From contig CBDCJH010000002.1 of the NCBI GenBank assembly GCA_965217775.1, positions 3,168,001-3,232,000 on the forward strand: DNA of 64,000 bases, in the 5' to 3' direction. This DNA is from Acidobacteriota bacterium (GTDB lineage: Bacteria > Acidobacteriota > UBA6911 > RPQK01 > JAJDTT01). The translations under genes and the position numbers were made by a program. Shown piece by piece: positions 44,131 to 50,949 of this stretch (position 1 is the first letter of the stretch; each line of letters begins with the position of its first letter). The notes below the pieces were generated by a model that worked only from the letters and a program-made list of their open reading frames with translations, was not told where the DNA came from and made no database searches.

Positions 44131-45701
44131 CGTTGCGTCCCGCTACGTCGCGTGCCGGCGACTCTCAACACGGGCCTTTGAATAGCCTCACATTCCCCAT
44201 ACGGTCACCGTGGCCCCACCCGCCGTTTCGTCGCGGCGATAGATCTTGTCTTCCCATGACCTCCCCTCGGAGCGGTCGAAGATCACGAGGTGTCCCTCCG
44301 ATGCGGCGCAGCGTTCCATGTAGGCGCGCGTTTGCGCCAAGCCTTCGCGAAGCGTTGCATCGAGGCCCCGATGCAGCACTTTGCATTCGACGACCACCTT
44401 CTGCATCTGCCGGTCCGTTCCGGATTGCGCCTCGCTGGCGCGCCCTGCAACTGGTGACAGGATCAACAGATCCGTCCGCCTCCGGCCCAGGCCGTACTCG
44501 CGCTCGATCCGCCCGCCGCTGTTGACGATGCGCTGCAGGAACGCTTGCAACAAAAGTTGTGGGCCAGCCTCCTTGTACTGGAAGCGCTCCACCCAGTGCT
44601 CCGAGTGCTCCCGGAAGAACTCCTGGAACGCGGCCATCAGCTTGACGGACCGCAACGCCCCGTTCTCATCGACGTACCACGCCGGATCGTGATGGATCGA
44701 CATCTCCTGAGTGGTATAGGTGAGACCGCGCGGGATCACTTCGCGGTAGATGGGATTGGCGATGGCCACGGGGCCGGTTCGCGTCACCAGGCCCAGGTCG
44801 CGCACATACGCCAGATCGTCGGCTGGGATCGGGTCAACCGCGCCGGACCCCTTCAGCAGCGGCTCGACGACCCGGCGCACCCGCTCCTCCTGCAGCTTGT
44901 CGGTGAGCTGGTCCAGATGGGTCTCGCGACGCAGGATCAATTGCTCGCGCGCGTCCTGGATGGCGTCGCCGGTGATCTCCCGGCTACGGTCCCGGCCTTC
45001 CTTGTTGTCGAAACAGGTTTCGTAGGCCAGGGCGTTCACCAGCCAGGGCTGGCCCTGCGTCAACCTCCAGATCTCGTCCCGCCCCTCGTCCGTGAACACT
45101 TGGTCCGTCTCCCCGGTATGTTGTGCCAACAGGGACTCGACCTCGCGTGGCAAGAAATCTCCGAGCCGCAGGGATTCGGCCCGAATGTTGAATGCGCTGC
45201 CACCGGCGACGATGGCGTTTTCGGCCCTGGACCGAATTCGGTAGTCGCGCACGTCGCGAACGCCGCACAGAATCACGCTCTGGGGAAACCGCCGGGGGCG
45301 GTCCGGATAACCGGCCCGGAGCTGACGCAATACCGACAGCAGCGTGTCGCCCATCAGCGCATCGATCTCGTCGATCATGAGCACGAGCGGCTTGGCGTCG
45401 GCTTCGCTCCATCGGGCCAGCGTCTCCCCCAGCGCGTCGTTGGGGCCCGCTGTTGCTAGAATCCCCGGCCAAACTTCAGCCACGAACAGGTCGTCCAGCG
45501 CGTGGCGCGCCGCCCGCGCCAGGGCGCTGAGGATCGCTCGCACACCCTCACGGACATTTTCCCGGGCCGCCGGGCCGCCGGGCCGCCTTCGACGTTGACG
45601 TACACGCACCGGAACTCGCCGCCGAGGTTCAACTCGTCCCTCAGCGCCAGCAGTGCCGAAGTCTTGCCCGTCTGACGCGGCGCGCGCAGGACGAAGTATT
45701 T

Positions 45702-45801
45702 GGGGCTTATATACCTAAGTGCCATTGGCATACAGTTCTGGCACCACGCTTTCCCCAACGAGATACGTTCCGGTACCCAGGGCAAGAACCCCAGCCCTGA
45801 G
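45702..45801 (-). ncRNA. Predicted TnpB omegaRNA scaffold overlapping the tnpB 3' end and right TIR
   Basis: By-eye stems: CTCAGGGC/GCCCTGGG; GGTACC..ACG/CGT..GGTGCC; TGTATGCC/GGTATATA; loop GGGGTT complementary to terminal AGCCCC. Confidence 0.6.
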
Positions 45802-46890
45802 AATGTTCAGGGCGGCATTGTGGTCCCTGTCCATTCTAAGTCCGCAGGCCCTGCACCGGAAGGTTTCGCTCCGCCCTGGATCGTGGCGGGCGCCGCACCG
45901 GTGGCAGTCCTGCGATGTAAATGCGGGATTCACGTCTACGAACTTCCGACCGGCCCATTCTGCCTTGTACTGGATTTGATTCCGCAGAAGCCCCCAGGAT
46001 TGCGTCAGTATTTCTCGATTCAGCCCCTTCTTCTTCGAGCCCTTCGTTACCATCCCTTGGATGTTCAGCTTCTCCACAGCGATCAGACCGTGCTCACGAA
46101 TGATGCTGCTGGAGAGACGATGGCAGGCATTACGGTTTCGGACCGATTCCCGGTGACGGAGCCGAGATAGCTGTACGATCCGCTTCCGTCTGGTCTTGGA
46201 AATCTTCTTGCACCTGGAGACCTTTCTCTGCTGCTTTCGGATCCCCGCCCAGTCCCGTCTATTCCGTTCGATCCTCTCACCCGTGGACAGCACCGCTCGC
46301 TGGCGGACTCCCAGGTCGATCCCCACCGAAGACTCGCATTTCGGCAGCGGCAGCTTCTCCACCTCGTACGTCAGGTCCACGGACACCCGGTTCGGCTTGC
46401 GGACGATCCGCAACGCCTTCAACGGGCATCCGTTCGGCAACGGCCGGGACGGAAAGATCCGGATCGTCGGAAAGCCCTTGGGCCGGATGGCGTAGCCCCG
46501 AGCCCGCTTCTTCACCAGGGTCGCCTTGGGGTCGACGACGTCCATGGTCTCCATCCTCGCCAGGGGCCGGAACCGAGGATACCCCGGCTTCTCCCCCGCC
46601 TTGCATCGACGGAAGAACGCCTGGAAGGCCCGATCCAATCGAACCAGCATCCCACGCTCCGCCTTGACCGCCACTGACCCGAGCCCCTCCGGATCTTCCT
46701 TCCTCATGGAGGTCAACCCCTTCATCTGATCGTACAGGGTCACACCGCGCTGCTCGGACTCCCATGCCATCCTCCGTTCCTCCAGTGCCGCGTTGTACAG
46801 CCGATTCAGGATGGACCTCACCCAGTCCAACCGCCGGATTCCACCCTTGGACAGCTTGGCTCTGCACTGGATAGTTGCGTGGCCTTTCAT
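45715..46890 (-). CDS. tnpB: RNA-guided endonuclease TnpB
   Basis: LYNAALEER, RLDRAFQAFFRR..GEKPGYPRF, RuvC-I VGIDLG, RuvC-II IAVEKL, YKAEWAG, TSQDCHRCG..CRACG zinc finger, RuvC-III DRDHNAALNI. Confidence 0.96.
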   Translation of the reverse strand: MKGHATIQCRAKLSKGGIRRLDWVRSILNRLYNAALEERRMAWESEQRGVTLYDQMKGLTSMRKEDPEGLGSVAVKAERGMLVRLDRAFQAFFRRCKAGEKPGYPRFRPLARMETMDVVDPKATLVKKRARGYAIRPKGFPTIRIFPSRPLPNGCPLKALRIVRKPNRVSVDLTYEVEKLPLPKCESSVGIDLGVRQRAVLSTGERIERNRRDWAGIRKQQRKVSRCKKISKTRRKRIVQLSRLRHRESVRNRNACHRLSSSIIREHGLIAVEKLNIQGMVTKGSKKKGLNREILTQSWGLLRNQIQYKAEWAGRKFVDVNPAFTSQDCHRCGARHDPGRSETFRCRACGLRMDRDHNAALNILRAGVLALGTGTYLVGESVVPELYANGT

Positions 46891-47199
46891 GGTAGGACTT
46901 GTAAACCATCAGCCTGAATTCTCGGCACTTAGGCATATAATCCCCAAGTATTTCCACTGCCGGATGAGCATCAGGAAATCGTCGACGTCGAGCCGCTCCA
47001 GGGGCGGGATACTGTAGTGCATTTCCGGGTTCACCGGGCCGGCGGTGTTGAAGAAACGCATAGTTTGAGTATCGCACGTTGTCTCGGGTCACGCAGTGCA
47101 CCGAGAGGAGGGGCGTCCTCGGAACAAGACGCGGCATCGCCTCAAGACGCTGTAGACAGCAGGGTCGGAAGAACTGAGACGTGAACCGGTACGAGCAGT

Positions 47200-49047
47200 T
47201 CAGCCCGACGGGAGTGCGTACCCCAGGGCATGGGCGGCTCGCCGAAAGGCGGTTTCGGATCTTGCGGGAACGACGAGCCCGCGCGGACCGGCGCGCACGC
47301 AGTACCTGGCCGCCCGCCGGTCGGCGGCAATCCGTTCGGCGATCTCCTTGTCCGCGCACTCGATCATCAGGGCCGGGCCCTTCCGCTTCAGGGCGCGCCC
47401 GCCGAGCTCGACGCTTCGGATGAAGCCTTCGACCTTCTGCGGCAGCGGCTGATCGTCACGCGCGTCAAGAAATTCCCTCAACTGCGCCACGTCCTGACCG
47501 CTCTCGACGGCCGTGAGAGCGCGCGTGAGATCCAGTCGCCAGACCCCGTCGGACTCGACCCGGGCATAGGTCTCCAGCACCACGAGTTCCTCGGGCGGCA
47601 GCGGTGCCGCCGATTCGACCCGCAGGTCGGTATACAGAGTCAGAGCGGTTCGAATCGGCGGACTGCCCGGCTCGTATTCGTCCGTCTGGCCGACACAATA
47701 GGCGCCCAAGGGATTGAGCCGGAAATACTCCAGACCGTCGTAACGGCTCAGGAATTCCAGATCGTCCGCACCCCACATGTGCCGGAAGTCCCGCCGTGCC
47801 CCGTGCGGGTCGGTGAACGCGACGTCCACCAAACCCAGGGTGGCCACGTACTCGAGCAACAAGCACAGGACATAGCGTCCCTGGAGCAGACTCCACTCGT
47901 GATTGCCGGCAAAGCCGAAGCTGCCGTGCCGCATCTCAACGAGGTAGAGGCGCCACGGATCCCGCGTGACACTGACGTCCAGTTCCGCCGCCTCCATGAA
48001 GCGGAAGAATTCGTCCACCTGCACCCACCCCCCCACGGGACACTCGGCGAGCGCCTCGTCGATCATGGGCCGGCGATTCCGCACGGCCGTCATCGTCCGT
48101 TTGCCCCGCCCCCGGTGCTGGCCCTTGATGTCCTCCATGCGGCTGAACTCATCCAACAACGTGCTCTTCAGCCACCACTGCCAGATCCGCCGCAGCGTCT
48201 CAGCGGGCGGGGTCGTGAAGGCCGCGCGCCCGGCCTTGGTCAACACCAGCTTGGAGCCGCGCCGTTGGACCAGCTTGCCGGCCTGCACCAGCCAGGGCCA
48301 AGCGAATGCCCGGATGGAGCCGATCGTCTGTTCCCAGCGCTTCCTCTTCTCGTTCGGGTCGAAGAAATCGCCGCCGTGCAGCACCTCCGCGATGCGGCGC
48401 ACGGAAACCGCCGACGCGCGCCGGGTCTTCACGCTGACGGAGATCTTGCCTTGATCGACCAGACGCAGCACTGCGAACAGGTCGTAAGCCGCAGGCTGCT
48501 CCATGTCGCGCCGAGTCAGGCGTACTCTGTCGAATTGCGGTTTCTGACCCTTGGGAACGAAGGCGATCCGGCGCCGATCGACGAATTCCGGAACTTCATC
48601 CACGGCAGAGACGGTCGGTTCCTCCGGCTCGGGCACGAACTCCAGGAGCTGATTTTCGAGGTCTCTGGGGATGGTCGTCGGTGCAAAATACCGGTAGCCG
48701 TCCGCAGGGTAGAGAAACAGGTGCAACAGGGTAGGCTCAATGGTATCGCCTTTGTCGATGCGCTTCGGCAACACTCCGTACTTGGCGCGAAACCGTTTGG
48801 CCTCGAATCGGCCCTCCAGGCCATAGAGCGCTTCCTTCACCGCCAACTGCTGAGTCTTGTCAAGCCGCTCCCACAGTTCTCGCAACGGCCTGCCAGTCAG
48901 ACGGAGCGAGATGGCCTCCACCATGTCCGCCTTCAGTCTCGGCCGCGGCTTGGGGATGGACAGCAGATTCATCATCGGTTTGAGGGTCGGAACCGACAGG
49001 GCCGACAGGGCCTTCTTCAGGGTGGCGGACGGTAGTTTGATTCTCAT
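47200..49047 (-). CDS. Helicase-associated domain protein (XPB/Ssl2-N, Helicase_C_3-like C-terminus), paralog 1
   Basis: AFAWPWLVQAG, LLEYVATLGLVDVA, FLSRYDGLEYFRLNPLG, VWRLD..PLPQKV; no ATPase motifs seen. Confidence 0.65.
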   Translation of the reverse strand: MRIKLPSATLKKALSALSVPTLKPMMNLLSIPKPRPRLKADMVEAISLRLTGRPLRELWERLDKTQQLAVKEALYGLEGRFEAKRFRAKYGVLPKRIDKGDTIEPTLLHLFLYPADGYRYFAPTTIPRDLENQLLEFVPEPEEPTVSAVDEVPEFVDRRRIAFVPKGQKPQFDRVRLTRRDMEQPAAYDLFAVLRLVDQGKISVSVKTRRASAVSVRRIAEVLHGGDFFDPNEKRKRWEQTIGSIRAFAWPWLVQAGKLVQRRGSKLVLTKAGRAAFTTPPAETLRRIWQWWLKSTLLDEFSRMEDIKGQHRGRGKRTMTAVRNRRPMIDEALAECPVGGWVQVDEFFRFMEAAELDVSVTRDPWRLYLVEMRHGSFGFAGNHEWSLLQGRYVLCLLLEYVATLGLVDVAFTDPHGARRDFRHMWGADDLEFLSRYDGLEYFRLNPLGAYCVGQTDEYEPGSPPIRTALTLYTDLRVESAAPLPPEELVVLETYARVESDGVWRLDLTRALTAVESGQDVAQLREFLDARDDQPLPQKVEGFIRSVELGGRALKRKGPALMIECADKEIAERIAADRRAARYCVRAGPRGLVVPARSETAFRRAAHALGYALPSG

Positions 49048-49113: not shown

Positions 49114-50949
49114 TCAACGCAAGGACAAAGCGTACCCCAAGGCGCGGGCCACTCGCCGAAACGCCGCTTCGGATCCTGCATGAACGACGAGGTGGCGGAG
49201 GCCGGCGCGCAGGCAGAGCTTGGCCGCCCGCCGGTCGGCAACGATCCGGTCGGCGACTTTCCGGTCCCGGCATTCAATCAACCAGGCCCTGCCCTTGGGC
49301 GTCAGAGCGCTCGCACCGCGCTCGACGCTGCGGAGGAATCCTTCGACCCTTTCCGGCAACGGCTGATCGTCGCGCACGGCGAGAAATCGCCTCAGTCTCG
49401 CCACGTCCTGACCGCTCTCGGCGGCCGTAAGTGCGCGTAAGAGATCCAGGCGCCAGACACCGTCGGACTCAGCCTGGGCATAGGCCTCCAGCATCAGACG
49501 TTCTTGAGGCGTCAGCGGCGCCGCCGAATGAACGCGAAGATCGGTCTGGAGAGTCAGGGCGGTGCGAATCGTAGGCGTGGTCGGCTCGTAGGCCTTGGTC
49601 TGGCCGAGGCAGTAGGCGCCGAGCGGATTGAGTCGAACATACTCCAGGCCGTCGTAGCGGCTCAAGAAATCAAGCTCATCGGCGCCCCACAGGTGCGTGT
49701 AGTCCAACCGCGCGCCCCGCGGGTCGGTGAAAGCGACGTCCACCATCCCCAGCGTGGCCGCGTACTCGAACAACAGACACCGGGCATAGCGACCCTCGAC
49801 GAAGTTCCAGAGCAGACCTGCGGCATGGCCGAGGCTCCCGTACTCCGGGTCGACGAGGTAGAGACTCCGAGGATCCCGGGTGACGCCGAAACCAAGACCC
49901 GTCGCGTGCATGAAGCGAAAGAGACCGTCCACCTGGACCCAGCCGCCCACGGGGCATTTCGCGAGCGCCTCGGCGATCACGGGTCGGCGCTTTCGCGGCG
50001 ACGTCATCAGCCGCCTGCCCCGTCCTCGAAACTGGCCCTTGATGCCGTCCACGCGGCTGAACTCGTCCAACAAGGTGCTCTTCAACCATCGCTCCCAGAG
50101 GCGTCGCAACGTCTTTTCGGGCGGAGCTGCGAATGTCGCGCGTCCGGCCTTGGTCAAAGTCAGCTTGGAGCCCCGCAATTCGGCGAGTTGGGCGGCTTGC
50201 ACCATCCAGGGCCAAGCGAATGCCCGGACGGGGCCGATCATCTGACCCTGTCGTTTCTTCGCGGTCGGGTCGAAGAAGTCGCCGCCGTGCAGCACCTCCG
50301 CGATGCGTCGGACGGAAACCGCCGTAGGCCTCCGCGTTTTCACGCTGACGGCGATCTTGCCCCCGTCGATCAGATGCAGCACGGCGAACAGGTCGGGCAC
50401 CGCAACCGGCTCCATGCGGCGTCGGATCACGGGCACCCGATCGAACTCCGGTTTCTCGGAACCGTGGGTGCGGCGACGCCGATCTAGGAAGTCCGGAACC
50501 TCATCCAGAGAATCGATGGCCGGTTCCGGCGGCCGGGGGACGAACTTCACCAGTTGGGGCTTGAGTTCCTTGGGGATGACGATCGGAAGATCCCGGTAAC
50601 TGAACGGCGGATAGAGAAAAAAATGCAGCAGCGAAAATTCGCGGTCATAGTACTGATTGATGCCCTCCGGCAGCGCACCGTATACAGCGTAAAAATGTTG
50701 GAGATGGAATCGATGCTCCGGGCTGTAGAGCGTTTCCGACACCGCGAGCTGCTGGGTTTCATCCAGATACCGCCATATCGTTCGTAACACATCTTCAGTC
50801 AGTCGGAGTCGGACGGCCGCTATGATGGCCGGCTTTCGGGTCGGCCGCGGCTCGGGGATGGACAGCACCTCCATCATCGGCTGGAGGTTCGCGATCGTCA
50901 TGTTGCCCAGAGCCTTTTCCAGGGTGGCCGGCCTCGGGTCGACACTCAT
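49114..50949 (-). CDS. Helicase-associated domain protein, paralog 2 (tandem duplicate)
   Basis: Colinear with 47200..49047; upstream sequence TCAGGGTCTCCG..TCGATGG also duplicated. Confidence 0.65.
   Translation of the reverse strand: MSVDPRPATLEKALGNMTIANLQPMMEVLSIPEPRPTRKPAIIAAVRLRLTEDVLRTIWRYLDETQQLAVSETLYSPEHRFHLQHFYAVYGALPEGINQYYDREFSLLHFFLYPPFSYRDLPIVIPKELKPQLVKFVPRPPEPAIDSLDEVPDFLDRRRRTHGSEKPEFDRVPVIRRRMEPVAVPDLFAVLHLIDGGKIAVSVKTRRPTAVSVRRIAEVLHGGDFFDPTAKKRQGQMIGPVRAFAWPWMVQAAQLAELRGSKLTLTKAGRATFAAPPEKTLRRLWERWLKSTLLDEFSRVDGIKGQFRGRGRRLMTSPRKRRPVIAEALAKCPVGGWVQVDGLFRFMHATGLGFGVTRDPRSLYLVDPEYGSLGHAAGLLWNFVEGRYARCLLFEYAATLGMVDVAFTDPRGARLDYTHLWGADELDFLSRYDGLEYVRLNPLGAYCLGQTKAYEPTTPTIRTALTLQTDLRVHSAAPLTPQERLMLEAYAQAESDGVWRLDLLRALTAAESGQDVARLRRFLAVRDDQPLPERVEGFLRSVERGASALTPKGRAWLIECRDRKVADRIVADRRAAKLCLRAGLRHLVVHAGSEAAFRRVARALGYALSLR

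Follow-up and report, generated by a model that had tools for sequence, protein, structure and literature searches.

In a 64,000-nucleotide (nt) stretch of an Acidobacteriota genome (contig CBDCJH010000002.1, positions 3,168,001 to 3,232,000; hereafter the window, with coordinates counted from its first letter), a tnpB-bearing element probably ends in an omegaRNA scaffold that is built in part from its own right terminal inverted repeat (TIR), as judged by comparison with homologous elements. The element spans 1,244 base pairs (bp) at 45702..46945 on the minus strand, on which all of its features are read, and the predicted scaffold takes up its last 100 nt or so (45702..45799), comprising a hairpin P1, a three-part stem P2/P2b/P2c, a linker AGAAC, a hairpin P3, and a pseudoknot. 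This stretch of DNA would act at once as the tail of the tnpB coding sequence (CDS), as RNA scaffold, and as transposase substrate, because the 3' arm of P3 coincides with TIR positions 7-14 and the pseudoknot would form between the P1 loop and the last six bases of the TIR. Transcription leaving the element would take its guide from the target-site duplication (TSD) and the flank beyond it, and such a guide would match the unoccupied target site.

The predicted omegaRNA scaffold

Three features fall within the right TIR (45702..45723): the stop codon of tnpB, the P3 arm on the 3' side, and the 3' strand of the pseudoknot. The predicted scaffold, defined by covariation, by the consensus fold from RNAalifold, and by individual folds of P3, begins with the P1 hairpin (45778..45799; arms 45799-45794 and 45783-45778), in whose loop the 5' strand of the pseudoknot lies. 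It continues with a branch within 45740..45777 formed by P2 (45777-45772 with 45745-45740), P2b (45768-45765 with 45749-45746), and P2c (45763-45760 with 45755-45752), the latter two being recovered by both RNAalifold and covariation. A single-stranded linker AGAAC (45735..45739), which reads RGAAY in 28 of 28 alignment rows, leads to the P3 hairpin (45708..45734; 5' arm 45734-45727, 3' arm 45715-45708), and the outermost 6 nt of the right TIR, AGCCCC (45702..45707), would close the structure by pairing with GGGGTT (45792-45787) in the P1 loop.

Most of these parts had been proposed in an earlier note made from the sequence alone, and they were found where it placed them. The hairpin CTCAGGGC/GCCCTGGG is present (45801-45794 with 45783-45776, loop TGGGGTTCTT), GGTACC at 45777-45772 pairs with GGTGCC at 45745-45740 around an inner ACGT/GCGT pairing, AGAAC stands at 45739-45735, TGTATGCC (45734-45727) pairs with GGTATATA (45715-45708), and AGCCCC (45707-45702) complements the loop GGGGTT (45792-45787) through four G-C pairs, one U-G pair, and one U-A pair. 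Only the base of the first hairpin had to be redrawn: its outer two pairs compete with the GG of the second stem, and the consensus fold consists of a 6-bp P1 followed by a 6-bp P2. The tnpB stop codon TAG (45717-45715) lies inside the 22-nt right TIR, as the note had also stated, with 13 nt following it.

The statistical support for the scaffold comes from covariation among homologues; the single sequence alone is unconvincing. The alignment (A2) holds 28 distinct 3' ends from eight subfamilies, with duplicates removed, starting shortly upstream of P1 and extending to the last base of the element; the count covered 33 pairs and 904 cells, with the pseudoknot and those P3 pairs that stay in register included. 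Cells were paired in 97.2% of cases, compared with 88.0 +/- 0.6 in shuffles, and 14 of the 33 pairs had changed on both sides, compared with 7.9 +/- 1.6; none of 500 shuffles reached either observed value. Sliding the partners by 1-3 columns left 31-48% of cells paired. Without any input structure, RNAalifold returned P1 (columns 9-14 with 25-30), P2 (columns 31-36 with 63-68), P2b, and P2c exactly, with compensatory changes in 10 of its 20 predicted pairs. Taken separately, P1 shows both-sided changes in three of six pairs with 100% of cells paired, and P2 and the P2b/P2c helix show them in four of six and three of eight pairs, respectively, with more than 99% of cells paired.

P3 is missing from the RNAalifold consensus, and MAFFT misaligns its variable interior; columns 74-112 were folded sequence by sequence, with z computed against mononucleotide shuffles. 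Folds at or below -3.5 kcal/mol were obtained for 26 of the 28 sequences (-3.5 to -15.1 kcal/mol; z -1.0 to -4.5), and 25 of these 26 pair the conserved UGU.../...AUA outer bases, the two sequences that fail to fold being the degenerate copies G_L014 and G_L122. In each subfamily the inner part of the TIR provides the 3' arm, and the 5' arm is subfamily-specific and matches that TIR. The seven in-register P3 pairs are 90.9% paired.

The pseudoknot follows the TIR tip in a similar manner. Across the alignment, 95.8% of the cells between the P1 loop and the terminal TIR hexamer are paired, and in a hexamer scan the P1 loop was the only segment whose complementarity to that hexamer reached 5/6 or better in all 28 sequences, with full 6/6 complementarity in 21. 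Loop and tip change together as GGGGTT/AGCCCC, GGGAAT/ATTCCC, and GGGGC/GCCCC. In the E subfamily, with tip ATTCCC and loop GGGAAT, two pairs have changed on both sides (GC to AU and UG to AU), a change that turns a valine of the protein into asparagine, while in the C subfamily the U-G pair has become C-G. Outside the alignment, a locus on metagenome contig L133, whose TnpB is 42% identical and whose predicted overall fold differs, likewise carries a hairpin loop GGGAAT and a tip ATTCCC. This covariation between loop and TIR tip is supportive of a pseudoknot at the sequence level. The covariation test that the earlier note had called for, GGGGTT/AGCCCC included, thus came out in favour: covariation, P3 folds, and hexamer scan all point to the TIR as part of the scaffold, and the sequences are consistent with a structured RNA that overlaps the 3' end of tnpB and places a pseudoknot beside a flank-derived guide. 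A further candidate, an IS1341-type element nested in an unrelated miniature inverted-repeat transposable element (MITE), was ruled out, the covarying pseudoknot using the last six TIR bases.

It is highly improbable that the pairings reflect something other than RNA, whether a coding constraint on the C-terminus of TnpB or DNA-level features serving the transposase, for instance a repeat of the TIR tip inside the element, in the P1 loop, or a hairpin lying subterminally at the right end. The region is indeed coding, and the P1 loop, in complementing the right tip, necessarily resembles the left one, over about 8 nt in the E subfamily. Coding constraint is nevertheless disfavoured because the compensatory changes recode the protein on both sides of the stems (LRAGVLALG becomes LAAGVSAAG or LRAGNFALG), the opposite of what such a constraint predicts. 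DNA-level features fit poorly with the recurrence of only six of the 22 TIR nt in the loop and with the lack of any counterpart, by eye, in about 60 nt on the inner side of the left TIR, and a solved omegaRNA has a matching architecture and matching distances.

Several observations nonetheless weigh against the RNA scaffold. The fold of the single sequence is not significant (minimum free energy -43.5 kcal/mol, z = -1.52, with 16 of 200 shuffles folding as well), and its minimum-energy form uses a competing upstream hairpin and was set aside as evidence either way. A permissive Rfam search of 45000-47500 returned only a chance-level Guanidine-II match (17.8 bits, E = 1.5), so that the predicted RNA falls under no curated family. 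The shuffle controls overstate significance, since the sequences are related and the tested structure was derived from them, a weakness from which the RNAalifold result is free. Covariation in the pseudoknot comes from two or three lineages (two sequences in E, one one-sided change in C, and the unaligned L133), and its four G-C pairs barely vary and are uninformative either way. In the D subfamily the tip is ATCCCC and the loop is unchanged, so that the fifth pair is a U-U mismatch in 4 of 28 sequences; a G-G mismatch occurs in one degenerate copy. The overlap between CDS and TIR is itself not conserved: the window copy has a non-conserved five-residue tail, and other subfamilies stop earlier or later. 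A tree of 15 TnpB proteins, built for counting pseudoknot switches, was star-like, with 6 of 12 inner branches open and a branch of length 4.98 for L133, whose translation was evidently in the wrong frame, and nothing was drawn from it.

The tnpB-only element and its IS1595-type partner

The left TIR (46924..46945), obtained by an inverted-repeat search, is 22 nt long and reads inward as GGGGATTATATGCCTAAGTGCC; in the majority of copies it is GGGGATTATATACGTAAGTGCC, which differs by one base in 22 nt from the TIR of the IS1595-type insertion sequence (IS) described below. Right and left TIRs match at 20 of 22 positions by manual count. An inverted repeat with 31-nt arms (45693-45723 and 46924-46954), 87% complementary and with the TSD included, was detected independently and resolves into the 22-bp imperfect TIRs with an 8-bp direct repeat, AAATACTT, on each side. 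Of the two TSD copies, the left one lies at 46946..46953, and the right one (45694..45701) supplies the predicted first 8 nt beyond the scaffold.

The element occurs in the genome in 12 copies that share the same boundaries at 92-100% identity, in addition to a more diverged copy (84%) and several fragments (72-77%). Ten of the 12 have a perfect 8-bp TSD, one has a TSD with a single mismatch, and one has none. The site is vacant in six related genomes: of eight further genomes from the genus, six have both flanks side by side, overlapping by exactly 8 bp, and three aligned empty sites read ...CAGTGG AAATACTT CGTCCTGC..., with a single copy of the TSD. The host gene broken by the element is ATPase-like, and joining both flanks gives one unbroken reading frame.

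Within the element, tnpB (45715..46890; 391 amino acids, intact) is the only long open reading frame (ORF) with a family match, and no transposase gene was found; the element is termed non-autonomous for this reason. The protein matches the Pfam families Cas12f1-like_TNB (PF07282; 2.1e-25, 89.1 bits against a cut-off of 26.3) and OrfB_IS605 (PF01385; 6.3e-17, 62.3 bits against a cut-off of 30.5). D192 (GIDLG), E273 (AVE), and D356 (DRDHNAA), which are taken here to be the RuvC I-III motifs, are invariant in seven of seven subfamily representatives, and the cysteine pairs of the zinc finger are conserved, with CxxC and CxxC in the window copy.

Further copies depart from the standard length. 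Internal insertions account for longer copies at G000:C2:4647309-4648714 (1,406 bp) and G000:C2:2358592-2359856 (1,265 bp), the latter also holding an in-frame TGA. Two internally deleted tnpB elements, L040 (649 bp) and L017 (G000:C2:4150407-4150872; 466 bp), retain the left TIR and the 3' scaffold region with the right TIR. At G044:C1:4815243-4815499, two inverted D/E-type TIR tips stand about 257 bp apart and may mark a MITE-like derivative that lacks tnpB.

The TIR tip was located at 49 sites in a genome-wide scan. Besides tnpB elements, the tips bound five elements of 1,760-1,762 bp and another two of smaller size, all seven flanked by a TSD of their own. The ORFs of these partner ISs match DDE_Tnp_IS1595 (334 amino acids at 1.8e-38 and, in a second variant, 331 amino acids at 1.6e-38); for Zn_ribbon_IS1595, the 331-residue ORF passes the 25.4-bit cut-off with 35.5 bits, and the 334-residue ORF falls just under it with 24.5 bits (2.6e-05). 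A perfect 8-bp TSD was present at 17 of the 30 transposase loci examined for ends, of which 20 were carried into the flank comparison described below; 24 of 31 tnpB elements have a TSD with at most one mismatch. The usual TSD length in the IS1595 family is 8 bp, and the TIR tip resembles that of the ISNwi1 group. On these profile matches, the owner of the TIRs, whose family the earlier note had left unnamed, is an IS1595-family DDE transposase.

The tnpB element is most likely a non-autonomous IS1595-type cassette that is moved in trans, a conclusion suggested by the TIRs, which are common to the element and the IS, and by the presence of both in one genome. As an IS1595-family derivative with intact tnpB as its sole cargo, it would be mobilised by the DDE transposase of a 1,762-bp IS elsewhere in the genome, each insertion producing an 8-bp TSD. 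What counts against this is the D subfamily, for which no cognate IS was found in its genome at up to three mismatches in 17 nt of TIR, a search that returned only four tnpB elements. The features by which IS200/IS605 (IS1341-type) elements are defined, namely no TIRs, no TSD, and asymmetric ends with subterminal hairpins, do not describe this element. Matches to Y1_Tnp in the genome number three, all weak and partial (39.2, 30.6, and 22 bits), and none adjoins a tnpB element.

The partner IS holds about 700 bp past its transposase gene, possibly passenger DNA. In the 1,762-bp IS at G000:C2:445385-447146, a 110-residue ORF (L129:314-646, minus strand) matches NA-iREase1 (1.4e-07) and Mrr_cat (2.3e-04), both restriction-endonuclease-like families.

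The surroundings of the insertion show some features of their own. Within the interrupted ATPase-like gene, a tandem 8-bp unit resembling GCCGCCGG is repeated three times at 45558-45589, and a frame shift separates ORF 45456-45785 from ORF 44188-45609, so that the gene may bear a second lesion. Beside the insertion lie two neighbouring paralogous ORFs of about 610 amino acids (47200-49047 and 49114-50949, minus strand), one of which has a weak match to Helicase_C_3 (30 bits, under the cut-off). Upstream of the insertion site, a stretch of 127-135 nt has further occurrences, about 80% identical, both nearby and in related genomes.

Candidate target motif, predicted guide and possible homing

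The predicted guide (45682..45701), placed from the position of the scaffold, consists of the TSD followed by flank. It may start at the first or the second TSD base, and the A found invariably at the first position may act as a linker in the scaffold. The earlier claim that this guide matches the empty allele was borne out against real empty alleles, the closest of which differs at guide position 17. A scan for promoters and terminators gave none on the element strand and no terminator-like site downstream of the element, the latter being counted in favour of read-through.

Flanks were compared between tnpB elements and partner ISs. Both ends were located for 31 tnpB elements; eight of 39 loci were left out: six because no left end was found, a seventh because its one left-end match, at 818 bp upstream, was spurious, and the last as a distant relative lacking a TSD. 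The motif was scored on the 24 of 31 elements whose TSD has at most one mismatch and on 17 partner IS sites read in the orientation of the transposase. Immediately 5' of the TSD, G occupies position -1 in 23 of 24 tnpB elements and 8 of 17 partner ISs (Fisher p = 5e-4), and GG precedes the TSD in 15 of 24 and 3 of 17, respectively. The first TSD base is A in all 24 tnpB elements and in 9 of 17 partner sites (Fisher p = 2.5e-4), and the joint occurrence of G at -1 and A at +1 is found in 23 of 24 against 6 of 17 (Fisher p = 3.8e-5). The second TSD base is A or T in 24 of 24 tnpB elements. At the other end, A directly follows the element in 38 of 39 right flanks, two of the loci appearing to be one site in two genomes.

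In the window, GG lies 5' of the left TSD copy at 46954..46955 and is present in the empty allele. This G or GG may be a target-adjacent motif (TAM), and the invariant A may be the counterpart, supplied here by the target, of the -1A of the ISDra2 omegaRNA, an analogy drawn from its position. The alternative of a 7-bp TSD, in which the A would be part of the element, was ruled out: the TSDs of partner ISs are 8 bp without that A, and the A is present in the empty allele. As a whole, the flank motif may represent a TAM coupled to a TSD-derived guide, a tentative reading of the flanks for which the chances are put at even at the very most.

It is quite unlikely that scaffold and nuclease are real and the G|A motif is produced by the IS1595 transposase, in which case there would be no TAM coupling and the nuclease would act on any flank or not at all. 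Such an origin would be in keeping with the partner sites, which also favour A/T-rich 8-mers, often flanked by G or C, and have G|A on at least one side in 9 of 17, so that the motif could be a property of the transposase; this preference weighs against the TAM reading, as does the size of the partner sample, 17 sites of which 16 come from one IS variant. In addition, the TIR tips of the main type of tnpB element are slightly asymmetric (GGGGA and GGGGC). Nearly identical ends, however, predict insertion either way round, as is seen for the partner IS, whereas the joint motif is strictly oriented relative to tnpB. The bias also persists in the D and E subfamilies, and an asymmetric transposase substrate is unlikely to be its cause because both TIR tips are identical there. 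The proposal in the earlier note of co-adaptation rather than passive cargo gains from this oriented target motif, which the partner transposon does not share, and from the 5' arm of P3, which tracks the TIR of its subfamily.

A further possibility, considered unlikely, is that the scaffold is real and the TSD lies outside the guide, as scaffold or spacer, with the guide starting after the TSD and the TAM formed by the 3' part of the TSD copy at the empty site. Precedents exist, since the RNAs of Fanzor1 and Fanzor2* include TIR and TSD in the scaffold and IS607 TnpBs assimilate a right-flanking nucleotide (PMC10711439 and PMC13565253, each in part), and the invariance of the first TSD base, together with A or T at the second, would fit such an arrangement. 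TSD positions 4-8 are, on the other hand, variable and cannot be fixed scaffold sequence; positions 7 and 8 are biased alike in tnpB and partner elements (A or T at +7 in 24 of 24 and 17 of 17, and never C at +8), and the signal specific to tnpB, at -2, -1, and +1, marks the 5' edge of the TSD.

If the motif is a TAM coupled to the TSD-derived guide, the RNA-protein complex could cleave the empty allele, in which GG and A precede and open the TSD and flank, and could spare the occupied one, in which CCCC stands before the target. The fullest form of this proposal, put forward as a conjecture that may well fail, is that a DDE transposon has taken over a bacterial TnpB to the point where the TIR tip itself is a pseudoknot strand of the guide RNA; that the target supplies the linker A, the start of the guide, and the TAM; and that the nuclease, rather than restoring an excised copy as happens in IS605, cuts naive empty alleles (GG-A...) and drives correctly oriented insertions to fixation. 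The orientation bias of 23 in 24 would then be explained, because only insertions oriented beside a TAM would be driven to fixation. If the proposal is true, a DDE transposon and a guide taken from the TSD would together make a homing gene drive of natural origin. A consideration on the opposite side comes from a 2026 review, in which cut-and-paste excision by DDE transposases is noted to leave a break already, so that homing by TnpB is less beneficial (PMC13565253, in part).

Relatives and comparison with published systems

Only records of Acidobacteriota metagenome-assembled genomes, one of them Candidatus Aminicenantes, contain relatives with an identity of 59% or higher. Within the order, matches at E <= 1e-60 were found in 6 of 76 genomes, the source genome included, and all six belong to one genus. 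A metagenome scan gave 161 relatives; among the best 80, only three exceeded 40% identity, the closest at 47%, and the covariation set stayed at eight subfamilies for this reason. Two metagenome contigs, L132 (47%) and L133 (42%), share this type of TIR tip at their ends. Of 73 loci that are more distant, L133 and L036 alone have tnpB flanked by an inverted repeat that is exact over 12 nt or more. The latter (L036:1377-2676, from a Rhodoblastus sp. record, with a 36%-identical tnpB) has a 16-nt exact inverted repeat, a different TIR, and an apparent TA duplication; its ends are reminiscent of IS630/Tc1-type ones, and it would represent another class of tnpB-only element bounded by TIRs. L034, a 35%-identical relative that belongs to another phylum, has tnpB beside Y1_Tnp (8.2e-42), and the nuclease lineage therefore has classical relatives. 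In the Y1-associated relatives L034 and L037, a hairpin loop GGGGCU and a downstream AGCCCC lie 3' of tnpB, with a further hairpin before the element end. AGCCCC, which equals the IS1595-type TIR-tip hexamer, thus pre-existed in the RNA of relatives, a circumstance that may have eased capture.

TnpBs associated with DDE transposases are already published, as are Fanzor RNAs with the TIR in the scaffold. Six DDE-associated TnpB branches have been described, all with inverted terminal repeats and with tnpB 3' ends within 250 bp of the transposon end, together with solo TnpBs whose ends are nearly identical to those of transposase-carrying elements, suggesting mobilisation in trans (PMC10691335). 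The present element resembles these in its inverted ends around tnpB and in ends matching a transposase-bearing element. In the main text of that paper, IS630 is the only DDE family named and 'IS1595' and 'ISXO2' occur 0 times, although the supplements may list an IS1595-type branch; in the portion covered, no analysis of RNA structure, of a pseudoknot in the TIR, or of a guide derived from the TSD was found. The 2026 review names ISL2, IS630, and IS1031 as DDE partners and calls for the characterisation of prokaryotic TnpB systems with transposases other than Y1 and serine enzymes (PMC13565253, in part). In literature searches, no TnpB-IS1595 element was evident from titles and the openings of abstracts, and nothing was found on a prokaryotic omegaRNA embedded in a TIR.

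The family offers a compact, multi-copy natural case with clear ends, empty sites, and the cognate transposase in the same genome, and its eight diverged subfamilies point to RNA scaffold and transposase substrate sharing the same bases. The predictions that follow are a pseudoknot formed by the TIR tip, a TSD that supplies both a linker A and the start of the guide, and a short G-rich TAM on the far side of the TSD. If they are confirmed, a small nuclease with an unusual TAM would join the candidate genome-editing tools, and a variable 8-bp TSD would prove usable as guide, instead of being absorbed into the scaffold as in Fanzors.

Among characterised systems, ISDra2 provides the closest architectural parallel in the RNA. 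Its omegaRNA has a 116-nt scaffold with four stems, a pseudoknot of -105 to -103 with -5 to -3, whose 3' strand is placed at -6 to -2, and the -1A before the guide (PMC10097598, in part). The background on which the earlier note relied, that characterised omegaRNAs overlap the 3' end of tnpB and close with a pseudoknot right before a flank-derived guide, agrees with this account. Both systems have a RuvC nuclease of the same Pfam families and, by prediction here, a multi-stem scaffold of about 100-116 nt overlapping the 3' end of tnpB, with the pseudoknot 5' strand about 103 nt upstream, its 3' strand just before the guide, and a single A between (PMC10097598, in part). IS200/IS605 elements, to which ISDra2 belongs, have no TIRs and no TSD, and their Y1 transposase both moves the element and sets the TAM (PMC13565253, in part). 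The element described here has, in contrast, 22-bp TIRs, an 8-bp TSD, and an IS1595-type DDE partner; its pseudoknot 3' strand would be the TIR tip, and its A would come from the target.

In the guide RNAs of Fanzor1 and Fanzor2*, TIR and TSD lie within the scaffold, that of Fanzor1 having no pseudoknot, and IS607 TnpBs absorb a right-flanking nucleotide into theirs (PMC10711439, in part). The Fanzors share with the present element a TIR in the scaffold, non-autonomous elements that carry only a nuclease, and an RNA reaching past the transposon end, all described in part of PMC10711439 and, for the RNA, predicted here. The present element differs from them in its bacterial host, in a predicted pseudoknot that is kept and built from the TIR tip, and in an 8-bp TSD that is variable beyond its first base. 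With ISs of the IS1595 family it shares near-identical TIRs and the 8-bp TSD, and it departs from them in having no transposase gene, in carrying an RNA-guided nuclease as cargo, and in a right TIR that doubles as predicted scaffold.

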